Sequence record: PX441839.1
DNA length: 64,000 nt
Strand: one strand, 5' to 3'
DNA from: a phage
The stretch's first letter is position 1; each line of letters opens with the position of its first letter. Shown piece by piece: positions 31,482 to 60,858 of the stretch. A program made the translations under genes and the position numbers. A model generated the notes under the pieces. The model was not told the origin of the DNA. It saw nothing but the letters and a program-made list of their open reading frames with translations, and did not search any database.

Positions 31482-34400
31482 ATGGAATATCAAGATAAGG
31501 TCGTTGAGGTTCTGGTAACGGCTCCTGTAGCTGACGCAGGTCAGACTGCTGGTTCCGGTGGCGGAAACTTCACTGGCATTGAAACCCTCAACACGCCTTC
31601 CACATCCCTTGTTGGTAAAGGCACCCCTTCTTCACCCCTTCAATCAAACGTCAATATCTCTCGTCGTACAGGTAACAGATTAACTGTAGTTAACGATCAG
31701 AATGAGACGGGTCTTTTCGTAGGCTCTGCTGAAACAAAGATTTCAAGCAAAGCTGGAAATACGATCAAGGAAATCACCCGTACAGAAGCAGAAAACGCAG
31801 GGGACCCTTCCTTAGAGGGAATTTACTCTGCCCCGGTTAGTGAGTCTGTATCTTCCCCTAACAAGACTGTCAAGATTGCACAAGTTGCATCTGACAATTC
31901 AAAGTCTACCATTGAAGTTGCTGTTTCTGCAGCAGATAACAATGCCCTCGTTGTTGGTGAAGACGGTCTGAGTGTACCAGTGTCTAAGTCTCTTGACAAC
32001 ACACTGGAAATTCGGCAAGGTGCTCTGTATGTGCGCCCACAAGAGACCCAGATCTCTCAAGATCCTGCAAACAAGATTGAACTGAAACCTGACGGTATCT
32101 TTGTAGAAACCGTAAAAGGTGATAAGGGAGATACAGGTGAGCAAGGACCAGCAGGTCCAGAAGGTCCTCAGGGTCCAGCAGGTAAAGACGGCGCACCTGG
32201 TGTAGAAGGTCCTCGTGGACCAGAAGGTGAAAGAGGTCCGGCTGGAATCGGCATCAATGTTATTGCTCAGTTGGCAACTGTTGATCAGCTTCCTCCTGTA
32301 GAGAACTACGAAGATGGTGACACCTTCGTTATTGATGGTCACTTCTGGACTAAAACTACAGTAGGTGATACATCCCAGTGGACTGATGTCGGATCTTTCA
32401 TTGGACCAGAAGGTCTGGATGCCTATGAGGTTGCTGTACAAGATGGTTTCGAAGGTACAGTTGATGAATGGTTGGCAAGCCTTCGTGGTGCTGACGGTAT
32501 CGGTCTGCAACTCTTAGGTTCATTCAGAAGCGTTGATGACCTCCCAATGGAAGATAACAAGGCAGGTGATGCCTATATCGTCCAAGAGCAGATGTGGGTT
32601 TGGGACACTGTTCAGTGGGCACCTGTTGGACAGGTTGGCCCAGAAGGTAAGTCAGCGTATCAAGTTTGGTTGGCTAATGGTAACACTGGTTCGCAGAATG
32701 ACTTCTTGGCATCCTTAAAAGGAGAGAAAGGAGACAAGGGCGATAAAGGTGATAAAGGAGACAAGGGTGAAGACGGTAAGAACGCCAACGCCGTAAACAT
32801 TCTTGGATCTGTTGAAACCGAGGCTGACCTTCCTGACGGTGCTGATGCCGGGGACGCATACCTGATCGGAGAGAACGTATGGGTATCCGATGGCGCAGGT
32901 AAATGGACAGACCTTGGCTCTTTCCGTGGTCCAGAAGGTCCTCGTGGAGTACCTGGTGAAAAGGGTGACAAGGGCGATACTGGTGCTCAAGGTGGTACAG
33001 GTAAGAGCAACTATGACCTCGCTGTAGAGGAAGGATTCACTGGAACTGTTGCCGAATATTTGGAATCCATCAAGGGTGAAAAAGGAGACCAAGGTCCACA
33101 AGGTCCTCGTGGACTGACCGGACCTAAAGGCGACAAAGGTGACACTGGAACAGGACTTACAGTTAAAGGATCTGTTGCATCTGTAGAAGACCTACCTGCT
33201 GCTGGAAATGCAGAAGGTGATGCCTATTTCGTTGGTACTCATATGTATGTTTTCCTGTCTGGTGCATGGGAAGATGTCGGTGAGTTGAAAGGTGAAAAAG
33301 GCGATAAGGGTGACACAGGACCTAAGGGAGATACAGGCCCACAGGGTCCAGCGGGTGAGCGTGGTCCTCAGGGTGTTCAAGGTCTTAAAGGCGACACTGG
33401 CCCAGTGGGTCCTCAAGGACCAGCAGGTAGGGACGGTGTAGACGGTACAAACGGAACCGATGGTAAAGACGGAACAGGTCTGATGCCAAAAGGCACCGTT
33501 GCAACTCAGGCGGATCTCCCTGCAACTGGTAATTCTATCGGTGATTTTTATACGGTAGAAGAGGAAGGAAGGGGTTACGCTTGGAACGGAACAGAGTGGA
33601 TCTACTCCGGTGTGGCTCAGGGTCCTCAAGGACCAGCGGGTGAAAACGGTGCTGATGGTGCTACAGGTCCTCAAGGCCCACAGGGTCCTAAGGGTGACAA
33701 AGGAGACATGGGGCAAGGTATTCTGCCGAAGGGAACTGTCCCGACTCAGGCTGACCTTCCTACCGAAAACAATGAAATTGGTGACTTCTATGTTGCTGAT
33801 GACACTGGAATCGGTTACGCTTGGAATGGCACAACCTTCATTAACTCTGGGATTTCTCGTGGTAAAGACGGGGAACAAGGTCCACAGGGTGAACAGGGTA
33901 TTCAAGGTGAGCAGGGTCCTGCTGGTCCTAAGGGAGATACGGGGGATACTGGTCCTCAAGGCCCACAGGGGGATATTGGCCCAGGTGTAGAAATCATCGG
34001 TAAGCTGAATGATCCTTCTGAACTTCCGGCAACCGGAGAACTTGGTCAAGGATACCTGATCGAGGGTGACTTCTGGGGTTGGACAGGTCAAGCTTACGAG
34101 AACTTGGGACAGATTCGCGGACCTGCGGGTCCGGTTGGTCCACAAGGGAACCCAGGTCCTGTAGGTGAGCAGGGTGTTCGTGGTGAGAAGGGTGATCAAG
34201 GCTCCTTATGGATCGTCTTTGGTAGAGAACCTACTCCTGCTGATGGTCGCGTAGGTGACTACTTCATGAACTCTTCCACTCTGGAGTTCTTCCGTAAGAC
34301 TTCTGCAACCAACTGGGCATCTCTTGGTTACATGGGTGGCGGTAACGTCTACGATGCACCTAAAGATGGGAAGCAGTACACCCGTTTAGATGGTGATTGG

Positions 34401-34769
34401 GAAGTTCTTTCTGTTACTGAGGCACCTGAGGACGGTGGGTACTACATCCGTACCAATGGTCAATGGCAAAAATTAGATCGTTACGACCTCCGTGTTGTTG
34501 AAACTACAGGTGCTATGGACGTATCTGTGAGTAACTGCTTCAAGGTTGACGGGACGGCTAATAAAACCATGTCTCTCACAGGACTCCCTCCTGACAGGGC
34601 GATGACTATTGTTATTCGCTTCTTGGGTAAAGGGGCGCAGTTGACTTGGCCTTCAAACCTTGCTTGGTCAAATGGTACACCTCCTGCTCTTGGCACAACC
34701 CGTACAGTGGTAACTCTGTTCTGGGACGGTGAATTCCTGACTGGGACTCAGGCGATGACTGTTGACTAA
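31482..34769 (+). CDS. collagen-like repeat fibre protein (1095 aa)
   Basis: multiple Gly-X-Y runs (e.g. [43 protein letters not shown]) alternating with a repeated module of the form LP..N..GD.Y.V....W.W.G..W..G. Confidence 0.7.
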   Translation: MEYQDKVVEVLVTAPVADAGQTAGSGGGNFTGIETLNTPSTSLVGKGTPSSPLQSNVNISRRTGNRLTVVNDQNETGLFVGSAETKISSKAGNTIKEITRTEAENAGDPSLEGIYSAPVSESVSSPNKTVKIAQVASDNSKSTIEVAVSAADNNALVVGEDGLSVPVSKSLDNTLEIRQGALYVRPQETQISQDPANKIELKPDGIFVETVKGDKGDTGEQGPAGPEGPQGPAGKDGAPGVEGPRGPEGERGPAGIGINVIAQLATVDQLPPVENYEDGDTFVIDGHFWTKTTVGDTSQWTDVGSFIGPEGLDAYEVAVQDGFEGTVDEWLASLRGADGIGLQLLGSFRSVDDLPMEDNKAGDAYIVQEQMWVWDTVQWAPVGQVGPEGKSAYQVWLANGNTGSQNDFLASLKGEKGDKGDKGDKGDKGEDGKNANAVNILGSVETEADLPDGADAGDAYLIGENVWVSDGAGKWTDLGSFRGPEGPRGVPGEKGDKGDTGAQGGTGKSNYDLAVEEGFTGTVAEYLESIKGEKGDQGPQGPRGLTGPKGDKGDTGTGLTVKGSVASVEDLPAAGNAEGDAYFVGTHMYVFLSGAWEDVGELKGEKGDKGDTGPKGDTGPQGPAGERGPQGVQGLKGDTGPVGPQGPAGRDGVDGTNGTDGKDGTGLMPKGTVATQADLPATGNSIGDFYTVEEEGRGYAWNGTEWIYSGVAQGPQGPAGENGADGATGPQGPQGPKGDKGDMGQGILPKGTVPTQADLPTENNEIGDFYVADDTGIGYAWNGTTFINSGISRGKDGEQGPQGEQGIQGEQGPAGPKGDTGDTGPQGPQGDIGPGVEIIGKLNDPSELPATGELGQGYLIEGDFWGWTGQAYENLGQIRGPAGPVGPQGNPGPVGEQGVRGEKGDQGSLWIVFGREPTPADGRVGDYFMNSSTLEFFRKTSATNWASLGYMGGGNVYDAPKDGKQYTRLDGDWEVLSVTEAPEDGGYYIRTNGQWQKLDRYDLRVVETTGAMDVSVSNCFKVDGTANKTMSLTGLPPDRAMTIVIRFLGKGAQLTWPSNLAWSNGTPPALGTTRTVVTLFWDGEFLTGTQAMTVD

Positions 34770-51938: not shown

Positions 51939-52454
51939 ATGAAGATGGAAAACTTTGAAGTTTACTCTCCAGAATTTAAAAGGTTTGGAGAGGGCGTCCA
52001 ATATTTTAGGGATGCAGAAGGAAGAGACTTCTATGAGAGTCGTGATCTTTTCACCAAGAAGTATTGCGTGTTCTACGACGAGCATGGGGTTGTAAGGGGT
52101 ATCTGCAAATCAGTGGAGGTTACGAGGGGGAACCCTAACGGTCTATCTATTGCAGATCTCAACTCCTTGCCCAGAGGGTTTGAGATGTTCAAGGGTATCT
52201 GGAAATTCGACGGAAAGAGGATAATTCCTTGTGATTTTGACCCTGCCATAACAACCAAGATGCGGAAGGATAAGTTATTCAAAGCTCTTGCCTCACGACT
52301 TGCCCCTCTTCAAGATGCTGTTGAATTGGAGGAAGCCACAGAGGAAGAGACCTTGGAATATAAAAGGCTCCGTTCATTAAGGGTTAAGCTTCTCCGAGTC
52401 CCAGATGACGAGTCCCCTAGTAATGTAGCTTGGGAAGATTTCTCGGGTATTTAA
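51939..52454 (+). CDS. tail fibre assembly protein (Tfa-like)
   Basis: follows fibre gene; C-terminal EEATEEETLEYKRLRSLRVKLLRVPDDESPSNVAWEDF resembles Tfa chaperone tails. Confidence 0.5.
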   Translation: MKMENFEVYSPEFKRFGEGVQYFRDAEGRDFYESRDLFTKKYCVFYDEHGVVRGICKSVEVTRGNPNGLSIADLNSLPRGFEMFKGIWKFDGKRIIPCDFDPAITTKMRKDKLFKALASRLAPLQDAVELEEATEEETLEYKRLRSLRVKLLRVPDDESPSNVAWEDFSGI

Positions 52455-52494: not shown

Positions 52495-52833
52495 ATGATT
52501 CTTGATATAATGGCAGTTCTTAAAGCACTCTGGGGATTTGCCACTTTTATTTTGTTGGGGATTCTCAAAATTACGTATTCTGACTTCAAAAAGATGCAGG
52601 AACGTCAGGACACTCTTGAGAAAGATATTATCCGACTCAGGAGTGAGATGGTTACTAAGGACAGTCTTGATGATATTTTTGATCGGAAGATGAAACATAT
52701 TCAAGACACTATCCAGGATATACGTGGGGATCTCGCAGACATGCGAGGAGAAACAAAGGACGAGGTTACTGCCTTACGTAATGAAATCAGGACTGTTTTG
52801 AATGTAGTTTTGGAGAGAAGCAACAGACAATGA
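52495..52833 (+). CDS. membrane-anchored coiled-coil protein (112 aa)
   Basis: N-terminal transmembrane helix LKALWGFATFILLGIL then charged helical region. Confidence 0.4.
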   Translation: MILDIMAVLKALWGFATFILLGILKITYSDFKKMQERQDTLEKDIIRLRSEMVTKDSLDDIFDRKMKHIQDTIQDIRGDLADMRGETKDEVTALRNEIRTVLNVVLERSNRQ

Positions 52834-53291
52834 TATCTTCCCTGTTCTACGGGATGTGCTTCCTGATTGTCCTTATGAACCCTTGCGTTCGTACAAAAAT
52901 AATGGCGGGGCTATGCCTCGCCTATATTGTAATAGAGAATATGATGCTTTGGTACACAATAACCAATGTTATCCATTTCGATATTACCCTTTATCATACC
53001 CTCGGGTGGATATTGGATTCAACTCTTTTGTTTGCAGTGGGTTGTGTTTTAAGAGGAAAGAGGCAGATCCTCATCATAGCTTCCGCAATACCCCTTATGG
53101 TGTCTCAAGTGTTAGCAATCCAATATCCTTCTATGTTCCCACCTGATGTATACCAGTGGGTAATTAAAGATGCTCACATGTATTTTATTGAGATGTTTAT
53201 CTTCGCTCATTCTTGGAAAGACAACACAGTAAAAGAGTGGTTAAAGACAGGAACAGTGTTGGGCCTTGTTGTTGCTGCACATTTAGTTTGA
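52830..53291 (+). CDS. polytopic membrane protein (153 aa)
   Basis: several hydrophobic segments; ATGA overlap. Confidence 0.4.
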   Translation: MISSLFYGMCFLIVLMNPCVRTKIMAGLCLAYIVIENMMLWYTITNVIHFDITLYHTLGWILDSTLLFAVGCVLRGKRQILIIASAIPLMVSQVLAIQYPSMFPPDVYQWVIKDAHMYFIEMFIFAHSWKDNTVKEWLKTGTVLGLVVAAHLV

Positions 53292-53310
53292 TTGATATTA
53301 CAGGTGGTAT

Positions 53311-53583
53311 ATGTTAAAATTCCTAAAGGACTTGATCCGGTCCACAACCGACCCTGCCAAGGCTTCACATACAAAGCTTTGGTCGAATATCGGTATGGCT
53401 TCAATGACTGCGGTGTTTCTCTGGTATGGTTTCAAAGGAACCCTCCCTGAGTGGTATTTGTGGGTTTATGCCCCTTCCGTTGCTGCACCACAGTTATTTA
53501 GCAAACTGATCGCCCTTCGTTGGGGAATAAACCCCAACCAGAAGAATACAGAAGATGAATTAAAAGGAGATCCTCGTGGCTGA
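53311..53583 (+). CDS. small membrane protein, holin-like (90 aa)
   Basis: two hydrophobic segments (IGMASMTAVFLWYGF, YLWVYAPSVAAPQLFSKLIAL), charged C-terminus. Confidence 0.35.
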   Translation: MLKFLKDLIRSTTDPAKASHTKLWSNIGMASMTAVFLWYGFKGTLPEWYLWVYAPSVAAPQLFSKLIALRWGINPNQKNTEDELKGDPRG

Positions 53584-56500
53584 TGATATTATTCAACTGA
53601 TCAGTGCAGAAGCTGACGCCGCTGTTGACCAAATCATTGAAGACTCTGTAAGGCTTCATAAAGTTGTAAATGGAACTGGAGTTGAGACAGTTGTAACAGA
53701 AGATGGTAGCATAATCCCTTCTGTTCGAAAAGCCCTGATTGACAACTTGTATTTTAAGACCCCTCCAATTCCTTGGAGACAAGGAACACAGGTAAGAGAG
53801 TTTAACCAACTTTATTCCTTTACCGATGTAAACGGAAAAGCCACTTGGTGGTATGCACCAGGAGCTACAAACAGTTCACCAGTGACGCAAGGTGATCAGC
53901 CAGCTACGGATACAAGATGGAGAGTGTTCTTAGATGCTGGGAATATGGATGGGATCTATGCTCCGATCCTGTCTCCAGATTTCAAGGGAAATCCGAGAGT
54001 ACCCACCCCTGCGGAAGGTGATGAGAGCACCTCAATTGCAAACACACTGTGGACAAAAAATGCGATAGCAAAAGCTATTGACATTGCACTTCCTAACTGG
54101 GATGATGCAATTTTTAACAACATCACTGTTAAAAATAATTCGGTGCTCAATAATCTCAGAGCAGACGGGCAGGTAACTTTTACTGGTCCGAAGGTCGATG
54201 CTGTTGATTCAGAGTTCAACCTTAAAAAGATCAATCTCGTCGGGGAAGATGCAGAAATAAATTTCCTTTGGTCTGATGGATCAGGTTACAGAACAAACCT
54301 GACACCCAACAAGATCTTCACTGCGGAAATGACGGCAAACAGGGTCAAAGGTTCGTATGTTGAATCAGGAGAACCTCGTGCTGTTGGAACAACTATGCGT
54401 GGGCATGGAGAGGCAATCTTTGATACTGTGCATATCTCAAAAAACGAAAGACAGCCAGTGGATGCAGACACATTATCTGTCACTGGGATAACCCGTGTTC
54501 AAAACCTCATTGTAGAGGGAGAGGCAGTAGGGATCAAGTCTAACGTAGATGGAACAACCATCGCACCGAGCAACATAAACAATGATGGGCATATTAATAC
54601 CAAATCCCTGTATGTCTCCGAAGAGACTCAATTGGATGGTATTACAAGGATCGGTGATGTAGAATTCTTAGGGACTGTCAAGGGACTTGATATGAATATC
54701 GAGTTCGACGAGATGAACCTTAAGAGTTTAAATGTCGCAGAATCCCTTGTTGTTGGTGGACAAACAACAATGTCTGCCGCTGTTATCGGAGATGTTGTTT
54801 TCACTGGATCTGTGGCGGGTATCGTATTGCCACCTGCCAATGTCGATGGACAGGAAATAAAACCTGCCTCTGTTGAGACAGAAACTCTCGATGTGTTGGG
54901 AGAGACCGTTCTTGAGAACCTGACAGTAAATGGAACGGTGACTGGCATTGACATGTCTGTAGATGGAACAGACATATCCCCATCAAATGTTACGACAGGA
55001 AACTTAACCGTTAATGGACAGCTTACCATGAACGGGGCTATCCAAATTAACAATATTGATGGTGACTCTGTCAAGACGAAAACGTTAGAGGTCTCCAACT
55101 TAGCAACTGTTCAGAATCTGACTGTTCCAGAGGAAGGGACTATAACGGGTTTTGGAAAGGTTGTCAATGAGCAAGATATCCTTCCAAACTCTGTCTCTGT
55201 AAAAGAGGGGTTGTCTGTAGGAGGAACTACTAACCTGAGAGATGTGAACATCTCTGGGAAAGTAACTGGACTCAATCCCGATTTCGGGCCTGGTTCAACG
55301 ATTACCTCTGACACGGTAAATGCTAAAACGGTAAATGCTGATACTGTCAATGCAACTACTTCCAGGACTGGGAACATAACGGTTACTGGAAGGATCTTAG
55401 ATGCAGAAGGAAATGATTTTGCTCTCCGTGTAAGTCCAGAACAGATTGGTGAAGCTATCAAGGTTCTTGATATCCAGCCAAAAACCATTGTTACTAAAGT
55501 CAGTGATGAGGATAAAGGATCTGTAACCACAGGTACAATCACGGCTGATAATGGAAACATTGGAACTTTAGGGACCAGCAACCTCACCATGCAAAATGGT
55601 ACGGTAAACGGATCTTTGAAGGTGATGGGAGAGATCCTGGACAAGGATGGAAACCCTGTTGCAATTATGGACATTCCGAGCATGATTGCTGGGAAGGACA
55701 TCGCACCGAAGGACGTTAGATCCTCTGGCTCTGTAACTGCCGCTGTGGACCTTACCGTCAATGGAAAGGCCAAGGTAGGTGGAACCTTAGAAACAGGCTC
55801 TGTGACCGTTACAGGAGGTCTCAGCACAACAGGCAGTGTCACTGTAACTGAGCAGCTATCTGTTCTTGGCAACGCTGTTGTTTCTGGAAGTCTACAGTCA
55901 ACAGGTGCGGACATTGGAGGAACGACCTCTGTTGACAATCTGATTGTAGCTGGAACCCTTACAGATGCACAAGGGAACCCAATTGGATCTGTCGAGTCAA
56001 TCACAGGGAAGGATATCAATCCTCGTGCTGTAACTGCAACTGGTAATATTTCCACAACAGGGACTATTACCGGACAGTCTGGTAGAGTAGATGAATCATT
56101 CACTGTAGGAACTGACCTTGGGGTTTCAGGTAAGTTGTCAGCAGGAGAGACAACACTTGGAGTCACAAAAACATCTTCTCTGGAAACAGGTCCAATAAAG
56201 ACATCTGGAATATCTGTCCTTGAGGGTAGTATTTCGACAGGCAAAGCTGTGACTGTAGGAACTGACCTTACTGTAACAGACAATGCCGTCATCGGTCATG
56301 TAGATATGGATTTTGACGGTGATCGGTTGAAGGTTGTGGGGAACCAACGGGTAGAGGGGAACCTGTATGTAACTGGAAACATCAACGGGAACGTAGATAT
56401 TTCTGGGCAGGATATTAACCCGAGATCTGTAACTGCCTCTGGTAATATTTCGGTTGCAGGTACAATTAGCTCCGACATTGGAGATTTCAACTCTGTCGAG

Positions 56501-57064
56501 ATTGGTGTTTCTGGAACTGCGGTTGGCCTCAGGGTCCTCAATAATGCAACTTTTGCTGGAGATCTCACTGTCTCAGGAAAGGTCAATGCAACTATTGACC
56601 AATCCGAGCAAGATGTAGTGACAAAGAACCTGCAAACTGGTAATATAACTGCAACGGCTATAACTGCTGGAAGTTTAAATGTTACTGGTGCTCTTAAGGC
56701 CCCGACTTCGGATGTTGAGGCAAACAGTGTCACTGCAAACAAGTTCATGGTCACACCTCAAGAAAGAACGCTAGATACTGGGGCATTTATCCCTGATGGA
56801 ACAACCAATATCTACAATATTGTATTGACACAGAATACAAGAATTGAGGCCCCTAGTCAACTTATTCAAGGTGGCAAGGGTGGTTCTATCATTATCTACT
56901 TGAACCAGGATGCAACTGGTGGTAGGGAGGTAACATTCTCCACAGAGTATCAAGCTCTTAATGATGGTGAAATAAATATGAACCCTAGTGGTGTTACTGT
57001 GGTCCAGTTGATGTATTCTGGACATGGAAGCATCATTGATACACTTATCCTTCCTAGAGTGTAA
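53576..57064 (+). CDS. long tail fibre / tail needle protein (1162 aa)
   Basis: GTG start after AAAGGAG; highly repetitive beta-rich sequence with recurring V.G.L.V.G and T.GNIT.TG units. Confidence 0.6.
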   Translation: MADDIIQLISAEADAAVDQIIEDSVRLHKVVNGTGVETVVTEDGSIIPSVRKALIDNLYFKTPPIPWRQGTQVREFNQLYSFTDVNGKATWWYAPGATNSSPVTQGDQPATDTRWRVFLDAGNMDGIYAPILSPDFKGNPRVPTPAEGDESTSIANTLWTKNAIAKAIDIALPNWDDAIFNNITVKNNSVLNNLRADGQVTFTGPKVDAVDSEFNLKKINLVGEDAEINFLWSDGSGYRTNLTPNKIFTAEMTANRVKGSYVESGEPRAVGTTMRGHGEAIFDTVHISKNERQPVDADTLSVTGITRVQNLIVEGEAVGIKSNVDGTTIAPSNINNDGHINTKSLYVSEETQLDGITRIGDVEFLGTVKGLDMNIEFDEMNLKSLNVAESLVVGGQTTMSAAVIGDVVFTGSVAGIVLPPANVDGQEIKPASVETETLDVLGETVLENLTVNGTVTGIDMSVDGTDISPSNVTTGNLTVNGQLTMNGAIQINNIDGDSVKTKTLEVSNLATVQNLTVPEEGTITGFGKVVNEQDILPNSVSVKEGLSVGGTTNLRDVNISGKVTGLNPDFGPGSTITSDTVNAKTVNADTVNATTSRTGNITVTGRILDAEGNDFALRVSPEQIGEAIKVLDIQPKTIVTKVSDEDKGSVTTGTITADNGNIGTLGTSNLTMQNGTVNGSLKVMGEILDKDGNPVAIMDIPSMIAGKDIAPKDVRSSGSVTAAVDLTVNGKAKVGGTLETGSVTVTGGLSTTGSVTVTEQLSVLGNAVVSGSLQSTGADIGGTTSVDNLIVAGTLTDAQGNPIGSVESITGKDINPRAVTATGNISTTGTITGQSGRVDESFTVGTDLGVSGKLSAGETTLGVTKTSSLETGPIKTSGISVLEGSISTGKAVTVGTDLTVTDNAVIGHVDMDFDGDRLKVVGNQRVEGNLYVTGNINGNVDISGQDINPRSVTASGNISVAGTISSDIGDFNSVEIGVSGTAVGLRVLNNATFAGDLTVSGKVNATIDQSEQDVVTKNLQTGNITATAITAGSLNVTGALKAPTSDVEANSVTANKFMVTPQERTLDTGAFIPDGTTNIYNIVLTQNTRIEAPSQLIQGGKGGSIIIYLNQDATGGREVTFSTEYQALNDGEINMNPSGVTVVQLMYSGHGSIIDTLILPRV

Positions 57065-57074
57065 TGTAAACAAT

Positions 57075-57103
57075 AGCCCCTACTAAGGGGCTATTTTACT
57101 TTT
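57075..57103 (+). terminator. rho-independent terminator
   Basis: TAGCCCC-TACTAA-GGGGCTA then TTTTACTTTT. Confidence 0.6.
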
Positions 57104-57114
57104 GAGGAGACAAA

Positions 57115-59613
57115 ATGATACCTTTCCCATTATTAGGTGGAAAATCACCAACTCCACCACCGCCACTTCCAAAGGGCGTTTCTGGGTACTCAGGAACTAC
57201 CTACATAGGTGAAGATGGTGAAACTTGGTCTTGGAACAGGCAACTGGAGAGATGGATTAAAAAAGATCCGTTTCCAGTTGACGAAGGGCATCCTGAACAC
57301 TTCATGGTGGGGCCTGCAAAGATAGGCACAGATGGTTCTTTCCGATACTTCAATACTGTAACCAACGCTTGGGAAGATGTTCCTAACGGGAGCACCTTGG
57401 GGATGGTCCCTCTGACCCTGACAGATGAAGGCGTAAACATAGGGACATCGGTATTTGTAGAGTATCCCATTTATCAATCCGCTGGGTATGCCGTAGGTCT
57501 TGGAGGGTTCGCAAGACTGCTTGGGACGGAGGTACTGGGAAGACCAGATCTTATGGACCTGTACCTTATAGGAAGAAGAGGGGATTTCTTTTCACCTTCT
57601 CCTGCAAACCCTGACTCCACCAACGCAATTCTCGTAATTCGAAATGTTAAAAGGGATAGGGTGTGGAATACTTACCTGAACATGGTTGTGGAAACAAGTG
57701 ATGGGGAGATGTGGGCTTGGGGAATGAACTTCTATAATCAGTACGGCCCTTGGATAAGAAGCGGAGTAACAAGTTCCAGTCAACCACACATGAAGATAAA
57801 CCCATTCTCTAAAATATCTGATTTTCCAGTACCACCTGAGAAAATAAAAGATATCTTCCCCGGTGTAACAATGGTCATAGTTGCAGACACTGACGGGAAA
57901 TTCTGGTCCAAAGGGATTAACATTGGTCAGTTTAACGATATTGATGACCAAATTAGGACAGCCTGGGTAGAGATACCCGCAGATAGGTTCCCAGGGTTTA
58001 AAAAGTTTTATCGGAGTCTTAACGGAACAGGTGCCGCCAATGATCTTGCTTACACCAACTGCGTTTGGTATTTGACAGATACAGGGATAAGACATTTTGG
58101 AAATGTGTATGGAGTGATGGACGGTTCCCCACTTGTATCTGCAACAACTAGGGATCTCCCTGACAGTAAAGTTCACTCAGCCCCTGTAGGATTGCCTGAA
58201 AGGAATGATGAGCCTAAAATAGTGAGTTTTTCACTGGCCAGATCTTCTGACTATATCCTTATTGCTGTTTGGTATGATGACCCCGAAGAGATGTATGTTG
58301 CCTATCCTACTTCTGGACTTATTTGGGACCACGCAGATGGAGTAACGTATGGGAGGAGATTCAATAAATCCTCAGCCCCTGTAGGGAAGCATAGGAACCC
58401 CATACTGGACTTCAATAAAGAGGCCACCCTTATAACGGGGTTTGATGGAAAATTCTATGCTTCTGGGACCCCAAGTGTAAATAACGGGCTATACTCAAGA
58501 ACCAGCCCAACCACTTTTATCGACCAGAAGATGCCATCCTCTCTCGTTTATCAGGTTGAGCTATCCGACTCTGTAAACGGAAAAACTCAACTGTTGAGAA
58601 ATGATAGGCGTTCTTTAATGATAGCCGACCTTTCGGGAGGAAGCAACTACTTTGGAAATGGAACTTTCTGGAAACCAACTGCAACGATTAAGTGGCCTGA
58701 CTATCCAGACGCAATTCCAATAGTGTTCAAGAATGATGGTGTCACTATCTCGGGATCTGCTGAAAGGGTAGATACGTTTTGGGGGTGGAATGTTAGCAAC
58801 TACAACACTGTCAGCAGTACAGCCGGAGACCAGTACGGTGCTCCCAGTGGGGATGCTGTGCATGTCTCAGGGGAAGGGCACCTTACAATCTGGAAAGATG
58901 ATAGCAGTATCCTTGTTGGTGGTTACAACATAGGTGGAGTGTTTGGTGCTTTTAACCAGTGGAAGCAACCACAAGGTGCTGGAAGGTGGGTAGGCACAGT
59001 AAGAGAGTCTTTTACTGGCACATCGACAGTAAGCTGCGGAACCACTATTGCTTGGGATGGAAAAGATCATTACATATTTGGCAAAAACTACTGGGATGTT
59101 GCAAACGGACAACCAGTAATAAAGTTCAGTTCCTCTGCACCTGTAAAATGGAACAGTAAACAGGGATACCCGAACCTCCCTAATTTTATAAAATGGATTC
59201 CTGCAATTATGGGATATTCTGATGACGAGGGTTCTTTGCAACAACCCTTCTTTATGTATCGGGGTACTGACGGTCTGTTTTATGCTGCGGGTAGCAATAC
59301 AACAGGTGCCTTGGCGACAGGGACCCCACCTGAGACAAGGGATGAGCAAAGATGGACTTTTGAGGTAATGAAGGGATCTGAGGTGTTTGTTGGTAAAAAT
59401 GTTAAGGTTTACCACGGACACGGAAATACCTCTTGTTTGTTGTTCGCTTGCGAGGGAAAGGTGTACGGTGTTGGATTACCTAACAGTATGAAATGGAATG
59501 ACACCGGAACCATCCCTGACCCGTTCTTCCCTGGTTTCAACAGAAGGCTTAATGAAATCACCTACCTGATGGATTTGCCGGATGTTATCTATACCCGACC
59601 AATAGAAGAATAA
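57115..59613 (+). CDS. RCC1-like beta-propeller repeat protein, probable tail protein (832 aa)
   Basis: repeated RCC1-type motifs GEMWAWGMNFYNQYG, GKFWSKGINIGQFND, GLFYAAGSNTTGALATG, GKVYGVGLPNS; AGGAG RBS. Confidence 0.5.
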   Translation: MIPFPLLGGKSPTPPPPLPKGVSGYSGTTYIGEDGETWSWNRQLERWIKKDPFPVDEGHPEHFMVGPAKIGTDGSFRYFNTVTNAWEDVPNGSTLGMVPLTLTDEGVNIGTSVFVEYPIYQSAGYAVGLGGFARLLGTEVLGRPDLMDLYLIGRRGDFFSPSPANPDSTNAILVIRNVKRDRVWNTYLNMVVETSDGEMWAWGMNFYNQYGPWIRSGVTSSSQPHMKINPFSKISDFPVPPEKIKDIFPGVTMVIVADTDGKFWSKGINIGQFNDIDDQIRTAWVEIPADRFPGFKKFYRSLNGTGAANDLAYTNCVWYLTDTGIRHFGNVYGVMDGSPLVSATTRDLPDSKVHSAPVGLPERNDEPKIVSFSLARSSDYILIAVWYDDPEEMYVAYPTSGLIWDHADGVTYGRRFNKSSAPVGKHRNPILDFNKEATLITGFDGKFYASGTPSVNNGLYSRTSPTTFIDQKMPSSLVYQVELSDSVNGKTQLLRNDRRSLMIADLSGGSNYFGNGTFWKPTATIKWPDYPDAIPIVFKNDGVTISGSAERVDTFWGWNVSNYNTVSSTAGDQYGAPSGDAVHVSGEGHLTIWKDDSSILVGGYNIGGVFGAFNQWKQPQGAGRWVGTVRESFTGTSTVSCGTTIAWDGKDHYIFGKNYWDVANGQPVIKFSSSAPVKWNSKQGYPNLPNFIKWIPAIMGYSDDEGSLQQPFFMYRGTDGLFYAAGSNTTGALATGTPPETRDEQRWTFEVMKGSEVFVGKNVKVYHGHGNTSCLLFACEGKVYGVGLPNSMKWNDTGTIPDPFFPGFNRRLNEITYLMDLPDVIYTRPIEE

Positions 59614-59619
59614 CAACCA

Positions 59620-59654
59620 ATAAAAAGGCTCCCGAATGGGAGCCTTTTCTTTTA
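59620..59654. terminator. bidirectional rho-independent terminator
   Basis: AAGGCTCCC-GAAT-GGGAGCCTT flanked by A-run and T-run between convergent genes. Confidence 0.65.
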
Positions 59655-59658
59655 TGTA

Positions 59659-60858
59659 TTACAGGACATAAATCACGTGGTTAGGATATTGAAGCCCTAC
59701 CGGAGCGAAGGGGATGTCATCATCGAAATCCATAACATCTGGGGTGTAGTCCAGATGACCATCATCGCTTACCGGAACTTGAGGATTAGTATCCTGAGGT
59801 TTTTGTTCCAGTTGAGGTTCAGGGGCTTTTTCTGGAGACGCGTCTTTCCGAACAAGGTCTTCTGTCGCATTGATGAATCGGAAGGTTGTTTCCACATTCT
59901 CAATAAACTGATCAATACCTTCTTGACTGTGTCGAGCAGCCAAGATACCGGATTGGCCCAGACGAGCACCAAACGCATAATCATCCATACCTTTGAACTC
60001 TTCCCGCAGCTTGGCCTTGATGGTATCCATAGCTTTCAGAACCTGCACCACAATAATTTGCTGATCGACGATAGCTGCATTTGGGAACATTGCATCTGTG
60101 ATAGTCAGTGCGTTGCCTAAACGAATCGGCAAGTCATCCTTTCCACCTTTACGGGAACCACCTGCACCACCTGCACCTTTTGGACCATAAGCCTTGAAAG
60201 CACTGATTGAACCATCAGCCGCCCGCTGACCAGCCAAACGACCACCCTCTTGGATCTGGGAGAGTTGCTCGTCTGACAGCTTAACGGTAACATCGCCATT
60301 ATCTGTCTTCACTACAACGTCTGAGCCGCTCACAGAGACGATTTCTCCGTAAACCTTAGTGGTTGCACCACCTGCACCTTGAGAGCCTCCCTGAGGTGTC
60401 TGAGAGCCTTGCGGAGCTACATCTCGAGCACCAGATGCATCGGTAATTTTAATTTTGTTCTTTTTACCCTCGGTGGAGGTTCGTTCATTACCCTCTCGGT
60501 CTTTGTAATATTTAACCTGCACTGGTAGACGAATCTTCATGCCTGGTTTAAGGCTTACATATTTGTCACCTTCTTTGATCTGGAACTGATCTTCGTATTT
60601 CAAGTTCTTAACTTCACCTTCTCCAAAAGAGATCCAAGCTGAATCTTCACCTTCTTTCAACAGGATAGAATAGCGATGGGTAGACTTGATAGTCTTACCT
60701 GCATTTGGACCCTTGTTGATGTGGGTGATTTTAGGACTACCGTCCTCATTGATACGTTTGATATTGATACGTTCAATTGTTCCAGCGGCGACGTGTACAG
60801 TCACATCATTAACAGCATCATAAACAGAGTTAACAACTTGAATTTTAACTTCGGACAT
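59659..60858 (-). CDS. SSB-like protein with acidic MDFDDDIPF motif
   Basis: near-C-terminal DVMDFDDDIPF identical to the E. coli SSB acidic tip, preceded by Gly/Gln-rich linker, but followed by 15 more residues (APVGLQYPNHVIYVL). Confidence 0.45.
   Translation of the reverse strand: MSEVKIQVVNSVYDAVNDVTVHVAAGTIERINIKRINEDGSPKITHINKGPNAGKTIKSTHRYSILLKEGEDSAWISFGEGEVKNLKYEDQFQIKEGDKYVSLKPGMKIRLPVQVKYYKDREGNERTSTEGKKNKIKITDASGARDVAPQGSQTPQGGSQGAGGATTKVYGEIVSVSGSDVVVKTDNGDVTVKLSDEQLSQIQEGGRLAGQRAADGSISAFKAYGPKGAGGAGGSRKGGKDDLPIRLGNALTITDAMFPNAAIVDQQIIVVQVLKAMDTIKAKLREEFKGMDDYAFGARLGQSGILAARHSQEGIDQFIENVETTFRFINATEDLVRKDASPEKAPEPQLEQKPQDTNPQVPVSDDGHLDYTPDVMDFDDDIPFAPVGLQYPNHVIYVL

Follow-up and report, generated by a model that had tools for sequence, protein, structure and literature searches.

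A predicted double beta-propeller protein encoded at the end of a Vequintavirinae tail-fibre cluster

The window analyzed here is a stretch of 64,000 nucleotides (nt) of phage DNA (PX441839.1), and the final plus-strand gene of its myophage tail module, an open reading frame (ORF) at 57115..59613 (+), raises the question of what a protein resembling the RCC1 beta-propellers might be doing at the end of a tail-fibre cluster. An earlier note on this DNA, made from the sequence alone, had called the 832-residue product an RCC1-like propeller and had offered receptor binding, glycan binding or an enzymatic activity as its role. The phage is a member of the Vequintavirinae, with Salmonella phage SSBI34 as its nearest record and the Pectobacterium phages POP15, POP17 and POP18 (Certrevirus) as the next nearest. 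For this subfamily the BASEL authors consider it unsettled which genes build which fibre, and cryo-electron microscopy (cryo-EM) leaves both a fibre-tip density in rV5-like phages and the third fibre of phiTE without an assigned protein. Propeller proteins are already known as tail or virion components of the Vequintavirinae; what is new is the double-propeller form described below, for which a surface or receptor-binding role appears to be the most plausible function.

Fold, domain layout and rarity of the 832-residue protein

The ORF runs from an ATG through 832 codons to a stop, as previously described, and the four RCC1-type motifs that had been quoted from it are all present, at amino acids (aa) 197-211, 261-275, 720-736 and 781-791. 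When all 152 ORFs of 100 aa or more in the six frames of the window were searched with a hidden Markov model (HMM) built from 12 genuine RCC1 propellers, this ORF alone was matched (E 4.9e-13); the RCC1 resemblance is therefore above chance and not a reading artefact. In the reverse direction, an HMM of the protein's own family (12 sequences), run against 1.84 billion proteins, recovered sequences that pass the Pfam RCC1 cut-offs with E-values of 1.2e-15 to 1e-9, nearly all library matches falling on the region of aa 185-285. Likewise, comparison of the family with an RCC1 alignment by hhalign gave a probability of 95.7% (E 8.9e-9) over aa 174-285, and it is mainly on this stretch that the significant profile homology rests. 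Within it lie two clear RCC1-signature blades (aa 185-285; 57667..57969, +), containing GEMWAWGMNFYNQYG and GKFWSKGINIGQFND and delineated by the PF25390 match at 191-270, by hhalign and by a single-blade RCC1 HMM. The latter scores positive at about four places, located in both halves of the protein (~190, 245-288, 585-608 and 718-740), and near zero at three further ones, only about four of the blades thus bearing a recognizable repeat signature by this model.

The profile-level homology is significant even though every RCC1 model in the Pfam scan fell below its curated gathering cut-off: PF25390 scored 36.1 bits against a required 150, PF13540 (RCC1_2) 18.1 against 22 and PF00415 (RCC1) 16.8 against 21.7. 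Judged by the rule that Pfam itself sets, the protein falls outside RCC1, and its homologues P0001, P0006 and P0011 likewise miss the cut-off; even at E-values up to 10, RCC1 families are the only ones that Pfam returns. NCBIfam holds no family for the protein, and a sequence search of solved structures, whether the query was the single protein or the family profile, yielded nothing useful and matched no solved RCC1. Matches in PHROGs were marginal, among them one to phrog_4219 (E 0.016, 14.5 bits, aa 187-269 only), a family that CR3_034 and PVP-SE1 gene 40, which are discussed below, match at 1.5e-14 and 1.1e-40, respectively. There was no match to phrog_15692 at E up to 1, and by these profile searches the long form is not represented in PHROGs. 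The domain is named after RCC1 of eukaryotes, which is an exchange factor for Ran, and nothing in the propeller fold as such serves to package DNA. In comparison to the seven-bladed RCC1, UVR8 and HERC2-RLD propellers (PF00415, PF13540, PF25390), the window protein appears to be a tandem form with extra terminal peptides and, unlike RCC1 and UVR8, it is not expected to act in Ran guanine-nucleotide exchange or UV sensing.

Structure prediction bears out the propeller fold, and it is in the number of propellers that it departs from the earlier note, which had envisaged a single one: strand count, Foldseek matches and a separate model of the N-terminal half all point to two. About 53 strands are present in the model of the complete chain, which would suffice for 13-14 four-stranded blades, and Foldseek pairs this model, over its full length, best with tandem propellers of the Utp, IFT-A and Elp2 type. 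When residues 1-431 were modelled by themselves (predicted template modelling score 0.76), about 27 beta-strands formed, and residues 1-13 and 399-431 were disordered. The prediction is thus of propellers with four-stranded blades, the figure of seven blades per domain being derived from the strand list. Fold matches of the model include the seven-bladed lectins PLL of Photorhabdus (12.3) and BP39L of Burkholderia (11.5), to neither of which was sequence homology detected. In a library of viral structures (BFVD) the top matches are phage 'regulator of chromosome condensation' proteins, the 'DNA condensation' proteins of GAP32 and CR9, and PVP-SE1 protein 40. Comparison of segments of the family alignment with one another by hhalign recovered no significant internal repeats; because a duplication is undetectable in the sequence, the tandem reading rests on structure prediction together with the homology of the C-terminal half to single propellers.

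Taken together, the models and alignments indicate five segments. The conserved N-terminal peptide MIPFPLLGG and a proline-rich linker (aa 1-20; 57115..57174, +) have a predicted local distance difference test score (pLDDT) below 50, and we propose them as a docking anchor; M1, I2, P3, F4, P5, L6, G9 and P17 are conserved at 90% or more in the family. Predicted propeller A follows (aa 21-398; 57175..58308, +), delimited by the N-half model; it is the additional part relative to the short forms of about 413 aa and carries the strongest RCC1 signature. An inter-domain segment (aa 399-431; 58309..58407, +), with pLDDT below 50 in the N-half model, leads to predicted propeller B (aa 432-788; 58408..59478, +), which by BLASTP and hhalign is homologous to the single propeller of short positional equivalents, and which holds both the most variable stretch of the family (aa 521-640) and the weak RCC1 blades at ~585-608 and 718-740; aa 81-140 and 361-420 are variable as well. 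The C-terminal tail (aa 789-832; 59479..59610, +), with GTIPDPFFPGFNRRLNEITYLMDLPDVIYTRPIEE, shows the highest conservation in the family (mean pairwise identity 0.67-0.81), and the monomer model gives it (788-832) a pLDDT below 50, a combination that makes it a candidate interface.

This long form is rare, at least as judged from sequence collections. Of the 5.8 billion proteins in one collection, only eleven are full-length relatives, and the phage records that contain one number only four; at 50% clustering the long-form family amounts to three representatives among the 1.84 billion. A pattern scan of the IMG/VR viral contigs retrieved no long-form relatives, and megablast against phage genomes no near-identical gene.

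Occupants of the same slot in related phages

The earlier note had regarded RCC1 propellers as uncommon in phage tails, a view that fails for the Vequintavirinae: in 11 of 11 other loci of the subfamily (six named phages and five metagenomic contigs) a propeller gene lies directly 3' of the long fibre gene and converges with a phrog_4477 gene, and jumbo phages carry entire arrays of such genes. The window gene stands out for its double-propeller form, not for the presence of a propeller. The 832-aa gene has the same layout, its placement at the end of the fibre cluster being as the earlier note had it: it ends the tail module, follows a long tail fibre gene of the phiTE_241 type (53576..57064, +; 1162 aa), which is always immediately 5' of the propeller gene, and faces the conserved phrog_4477 gene (59659..60858, -), 97.5% identical to that of SSBI34, as the constant flank of a variable locus. 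Matching layouts are seen in POP15, SSBI34, CR3, UPEC06, phiTE, CB7, KaOmega, F1M1E and loci L008-L011.

The occupants of this slot are diverse. In phiTE, CB7, CR3, UPEC06, W70, KaOmega and F1M1E they are proteins of about 411-422 aa (phiTE_242, CB7_37, CR3_034, QUL77298 and W70_106; phrog_15692); PVP-SE1 has the 604-aa gene 40 and the rV5-like Escherichia phage EmilHeitz the 1877-aa bas49_0041, and metagenomic relatives include P0012 (413 aa) and P0007 (810 aa). As the EmilHeitz equivalent reaches 1877 aa, one slot accommodates proteins of 411 to 1877 aa. All positional equivalents nonetheless share a common start, M-[ILY]-P-[FI]-[PA], with G-G and a proline after it.

The short forms, from Certrevirus and Septuagintavirus, resemble the window protein in occupying the slot after a phiTE_241-type fibre, in their M-[IY]-P-F-[PA] peptide, and in possessing a propeller homologous to its C-terminal half (hhalign 95.7%, E ~1e-8, over 586-817; the alignment of the short with the long family spans the C-terminal 204 columns at E 9.8e-9). 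They differ in being half the size, with one propeller and without the equivalent of aa ~21-430, and their identity is only 11-17%. The two forms are linked by P0012 (on contigs L008-L010), which the family HMM matches at E 5.7e-22. It has a MIPFP start and the same synteny, and aligns in BLASTP with aa 444-519 (weakly, E 0.002) and with aa 713-823, including the C-terminal tail (36% identity, E 7e-16); however, it is a single propeller with nothing equivalent to propeller A, its N-terminal peptide running straight into the propeller.

PVP-SE1 gene 40 and the phAPEC8/rV5-type equivalents are, like the window gene, the last of the fibre cluster and convergent with phrog_4477, and begin with M-[YL]-P-I-P followed by an RCC1-like propeller; the gene 40 product is also a structural match to the window model in BFVD (E 6e-8). 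They differ in that the one propeller is followed by Ig-like (Big_2) domains, with lengths of up to 1877 aa. Gene 40 passes the Pfam cut-offs for both RCC1 and Big_2, whereas the window protein fails that for RCC1. Its placement, with Big_2, in phrog_11922 ('tail protein') and the annotation of the rV5-type protein as a lateral tail fibre support tail association; the annotation of bas49_0041 reads 'lateral tail fiber protein with intimin domain'. We also observed that bas49_0041 (L016, 7001-12634) starts with MLPIPLL and continues through a propeller-like region into a long Ig/intimin-like region. The BASEL authors have remarked on allelic variation at the rV5 gp27 locus.

Proposed function and competing explanations

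We propose that the 832-aa protein belongs to the virion as an accessory of the tail-fibre apparatus. It would be docked on a conserved site of the fibre network by its N-terminal peptide, perhaps together with the C-terminal tail, and this site is most likely the conserved head at the C-terminus of the long tail fibre, whose gene directly precedes that of the propeller; the propeller faces would bind a host-surface structure (a polysaccharide, lipopolysaccharide (LPS) or enterobacterial common antigen, or the flagellum), making it an exchangeable adhesin, with propeller A supplying a second binding surface. To the complete proposal, a docked and exchangeable virion adhesin of the fibre apparatus, we accord even chances, and to the binding of a host receptor as such a likelihood slightly short of even.

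Exchange is the part for which the locus offers direct comparisons. Relative to SSBI34, the 832-aa protein has the lowest identity in the region (39% aa), against 73-79% for the two fibres and the chaperone and 93-100% for the non-fibre neighbours (11 of the 12 tail-module genes and all eight minus-strand genes). DNA identity is ~45-55% through the propeller gene and 65% over its last 300 nt, and leaps to 99-100% just beyond the stop codon, at a bidirectional intrinsic-terminator hairpin between the convergent genes (59622..59649, strand not assigned) that coincides with a mosaic breakpoint. As an observation in its own right, this breakpoint (59576-59725 versus SSBI34) separates a plus-strand structural module that is ~83% identical from a minus-strand early module that is 96-100% identical. 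The protein is nearer to the POP15 copy (63%), though the backbone of POP15 is more distant than that of SSBI34. Similarly, phiTE and CR3 have propellers only 30% identical amid flanking genes that are mostly 92-99% identical and a long fibre whose N-terminal 528 aa are 86% identical. Three propeller 'alleles' (phiTE-type, CR3-type and the long type) occupy similar backbones, and the propeller locus is a recombination hot spot.

This pattern bears on the best-surviving alternative, that the protein serves the fibre network purely as a structural connector or brace, for instance joining the long fibre to a collagen-like third fibre or stowing the fibres, and binds no receptor. Propellers are classic platforms for protein-protein interaction, as this idea would have it; but a brace in contact with nothing except conserved parts of the phage would not be expected to show the greatest divergence of any gene between near-identical backbones, nor should it come in three unrelated-looking alleles or gain the Ig-like arrays seen in PVP-SE1 and rV5-like phages, and we regard a brace as unlikely.

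A second alternative is a non-structural protein of the module boundary, such as a fibre assembly factor or a late-acting host-interaction or anti-defence protein. Module boundaries often gather morons, and a terminator-flanked unit of its own would permit separate regulation of the gene. Yet among the short homologues CB7_37 (4 peptides, 19% coverage; PMC7344957) and W70_106 (115 spectra; PMC11370258) were each detected in purified virions by mass spectrometry, another gene encodes the dedicated fibre chaperone (Caudo_TAP, 51939-52454), and the position is conserved throughout the subfamily. Virion detection covers the short homologues only, which leaves this alternative some room, and we judge it improbable. 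Because fibre adjacency is constant among the relatives and the short forms with which the protein shares homology are found in virions, it is likely to be a tail-associated virion propeller.

The enzymatic role raised in the earlier note, in the form of a virion-borne propeller glycosidase, sialidase or esterase degrading capsule or LPS, found no support: the protein matches no catalytic family in Pfam, PHROGs or NCBIfam, no Asp-boxes were seen by eye, and there is no sialidase among the top fold matches, in which the sole glycosidase (GH74) appears at rank 46. Such an enzyme is distinctly improbable. DNA condensation or an internal head location, a function suggested from the domain name for related proteins in the papers on phAPEC6, CBB and W70, is barely credible for a gene in the fibre cluster rather than the head module, with a product whose composition is not basic and with positional equivalents that bear surface domains of the Ig-like type and are grouped among tail proteins.

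Returning to the docked, exchangeable adhesin, its closest functional parallel would be the gp38-type tip adhesins of T2, T6 and S16: small separate proteins, encoded just 3' of the long fibre gene, that sit on the fibre tip and confer receptor specificity, which is the role proposed here for the window protein. gp38 is not a propeller, and the likeness is positional and functional only, with no relationship in sequence or fold; homology to gp38 adhesins was not found, the Pfam search at E up to 10 giving RCC1 families only.

As to the dock, the long fibre has a conserved N-terminus, which in phiTE is the baseplate attachment according to the cryo-EM study of that phage, a hypervariable middle (aa 500-900), and a C-terminal stretch of ~120 aa (56702-57061) conserved across the subfamily, including PVP-SE1, with the motif YL.QD.TGG..VTF ... 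VT..Q..Y.G.G..ID. A conserved tip with a variable middle is the reverse of the usual variable-tip pattern. Such a C-terminus would be odd for a receptor-binding tip and sensible for a docking head. Its identity tracks the propeller class (long, intermediate or short), and between phiTE and KaOmega both fibre ends (99-100%) and the propeller are kept, with the fibre middle swapped (a difference of ~290 aa). In rV5-like phages, cryo-EM shows unassigned density on the C-terminal head of the Vequintavirinae fibre class TC8 (PMC12143355), a head that in the authors' view may serve as the adaptor for an adhesin at the tip. Finally, between the long-fibre stop codon and the propeller gene lies a terminator-like hairpin with a 10-bp stem and a T-rich tail (57072..57095, +), at a place where phiTE has an annotated terminator; it probably attenuates read-through, and the propeller would then be made in a lower amount than the fibre. 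The spectral counts of W70_106 per kDa are ~0.3 of those of the W70 fibre, and hairpin and counts both agree with a partner that the fibre outnumbers. This evidence of conservation, co-variation, density and counts is circumstantial, and docking at the long-fibre C-terminal head in particular is a tentative suggestion that we hold to be rather doubtful.

Several considerations weigh against the adhesin proposal. The confidence of the structural model is moderate (pLDDT 67-70), no sugar-binding motif was identified in the 832-aa protein, and the virion location of this form is transferred from short homologues by remote homology and synteny. The co-variation of fibre C-terminus and propeller could be plain genetic linkage, the TC8 class may not be homologous to the long fibre of the window, and the phiTE cryo-EM study places phiTE_242 nowhere in the structure. 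Moreover, the short phiTE-type propeller is 93-96% identical across phages from Pectobacterium, Klebsiella aerogenes, Enterobacter and Pantoea, among which it is the long-fibre shaft and the chaperone, not the propeller, that differ; conserved over four host genera, the phiTE-type propeller is there, at least, not the main determinant of host range.

Local features and the shared N-terminal peptide

The coding sequence (57115..59613, +; 832 aa, ~92 kDa, and stop), annotated here as a double-propeller tail protein, is preceded by a Shine-Dalgarno sequence, GAGGAG (57104..57109, +), 5 nt ahead of the ATG, and this start is confirmed by the near-invariant MIPFPL N-terminus shared by full-length homologues. 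The base composition of the gene (GC content ~0.45, as in its neighbours) displays no anomaly that would mark a recent foreign origin. A signal peptide or lipoprotein N-terminus was rejected, there being no hydrophobic core and no Cys, and two antisense ORFs with GTG starts inside the gene (57592-58176 and 58867-59421, -; 194 and 184 aa) are unsupported and probably arise by chance.

Upstream of the propeller gene are baseplate genes, a collar/Ig short fibre, the separately encoded fibre chaperone, three small conserved ORFs and the long fibre. The three ORFs (52495-53583; 112, 153 and 90 aa) correspond to phrog_5345, phrog_7451 and phrog_1322 'membrane protein', and separate the fibre chaperone from the long fibre in every relative; phiTE and PVP-SE1 annotate their equivalents as membrane proteins, which is odd within a fibre cluster. 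Elsewhere in the window, a 1095-aa protein (31482-34769), homologous to CB7_10, has seven stretches of collagen triple-helix repeats and a weakly fibritin-C-like end; it probably corresponds to the 'third putative fibre' for which the phiTE cryo-EM structure has no model. On the other side, the convergent phrog_4477 gene starts 45 nt past the propeller ORF; its 399-aa product is conserved and matches no Pfam family, and homologues occur in 249 phage records, including those of Aeromonas and Campylobacter phages.

The N-terminal peptide extends the comparison beyond the Vequintavirinae. Among the real ORFs of the window its pattern occurs once only, in the 832-aa protein; a start of the form M-x-P-[FI]-...-G-[GN]-..-P is found in the short forms, PVP-SE1 gene 40, bas49_0041 and an array of genes in Escherichia phage 121Q, and for the short forms and PVP-SE1 gene 40 the alignment with RCC1-like proteins of jumbo phages begins at the very first residue. 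The 121Q array (L012, 4170-18336) comprises ~12-13 RCC1-like genes whose products all start with MLPF-x-RM-x-x-YGN, and within it a non-RCC1 protein, gp243 (phrog_4474), carries this start too. Variable bodies headed by an unchanging N-terminal peptide are the hallmark of modules with one attachment site, and the occurrence of such a peptide in 121Q on both RCC1 and non-RCC1 proteins suggests a virion attachment site shared by different modules. The Asteriusvirus and Rak2-like proteins of this type (phrog_4219: 121Q gp234-248, phAPEC6 and GAP32 gp1), together with W70_237-239, are single RCC1-like propellers with an M-L-P-F peptide; they have been detected in virions (GAP32 and W70) and include structural matches to the window model in BFVD. 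They differ from the window protein in forming tandem arrays away from baseplate and fibre genes, in their size of ~370-400 aa, and in a sequence match that is marginal, as given above. These comparisons suggest that phage proteins annotated as 'regulator of chromosome condensation' or 'DNA condensation' may be mis-named surface modules.

A broader possibility, which we put forward as rather unlikely, is that an M-x-P-[FI] peptide joined to an RCC1-like propeller defines a widespread, unrecognised class of plug-in adhesins, monomeric propellers seated on a conserved socket of the fibre network, present in both the Vequintavirinae and the jumbo-phage arrays and bivalent in the form found in the window. 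If true, the 'DNA condensation' arrays of 121Q and phAPEC6 would be host-recognition repertoires, perhaps the 'hairy' appendages, and not DNA condensers, and the double-propeller form would recognise two surface structures through one docking site.

A protein that does no more than brace would make this an ordinary finding; a general plug-in adhesin format, with the wrong 'DNA condensation' annotations it would entail, would be of greater interest. For the Vequintavirinae themselves, a swapped propeller gene that is last in its fibre cluster and has virion-borne relatives is a concrete candidate for the missing piece of host recognition and, if its product is an adhesin, would provide a handle for engineering the host range of those members of the subfamily that are used therapeutically.

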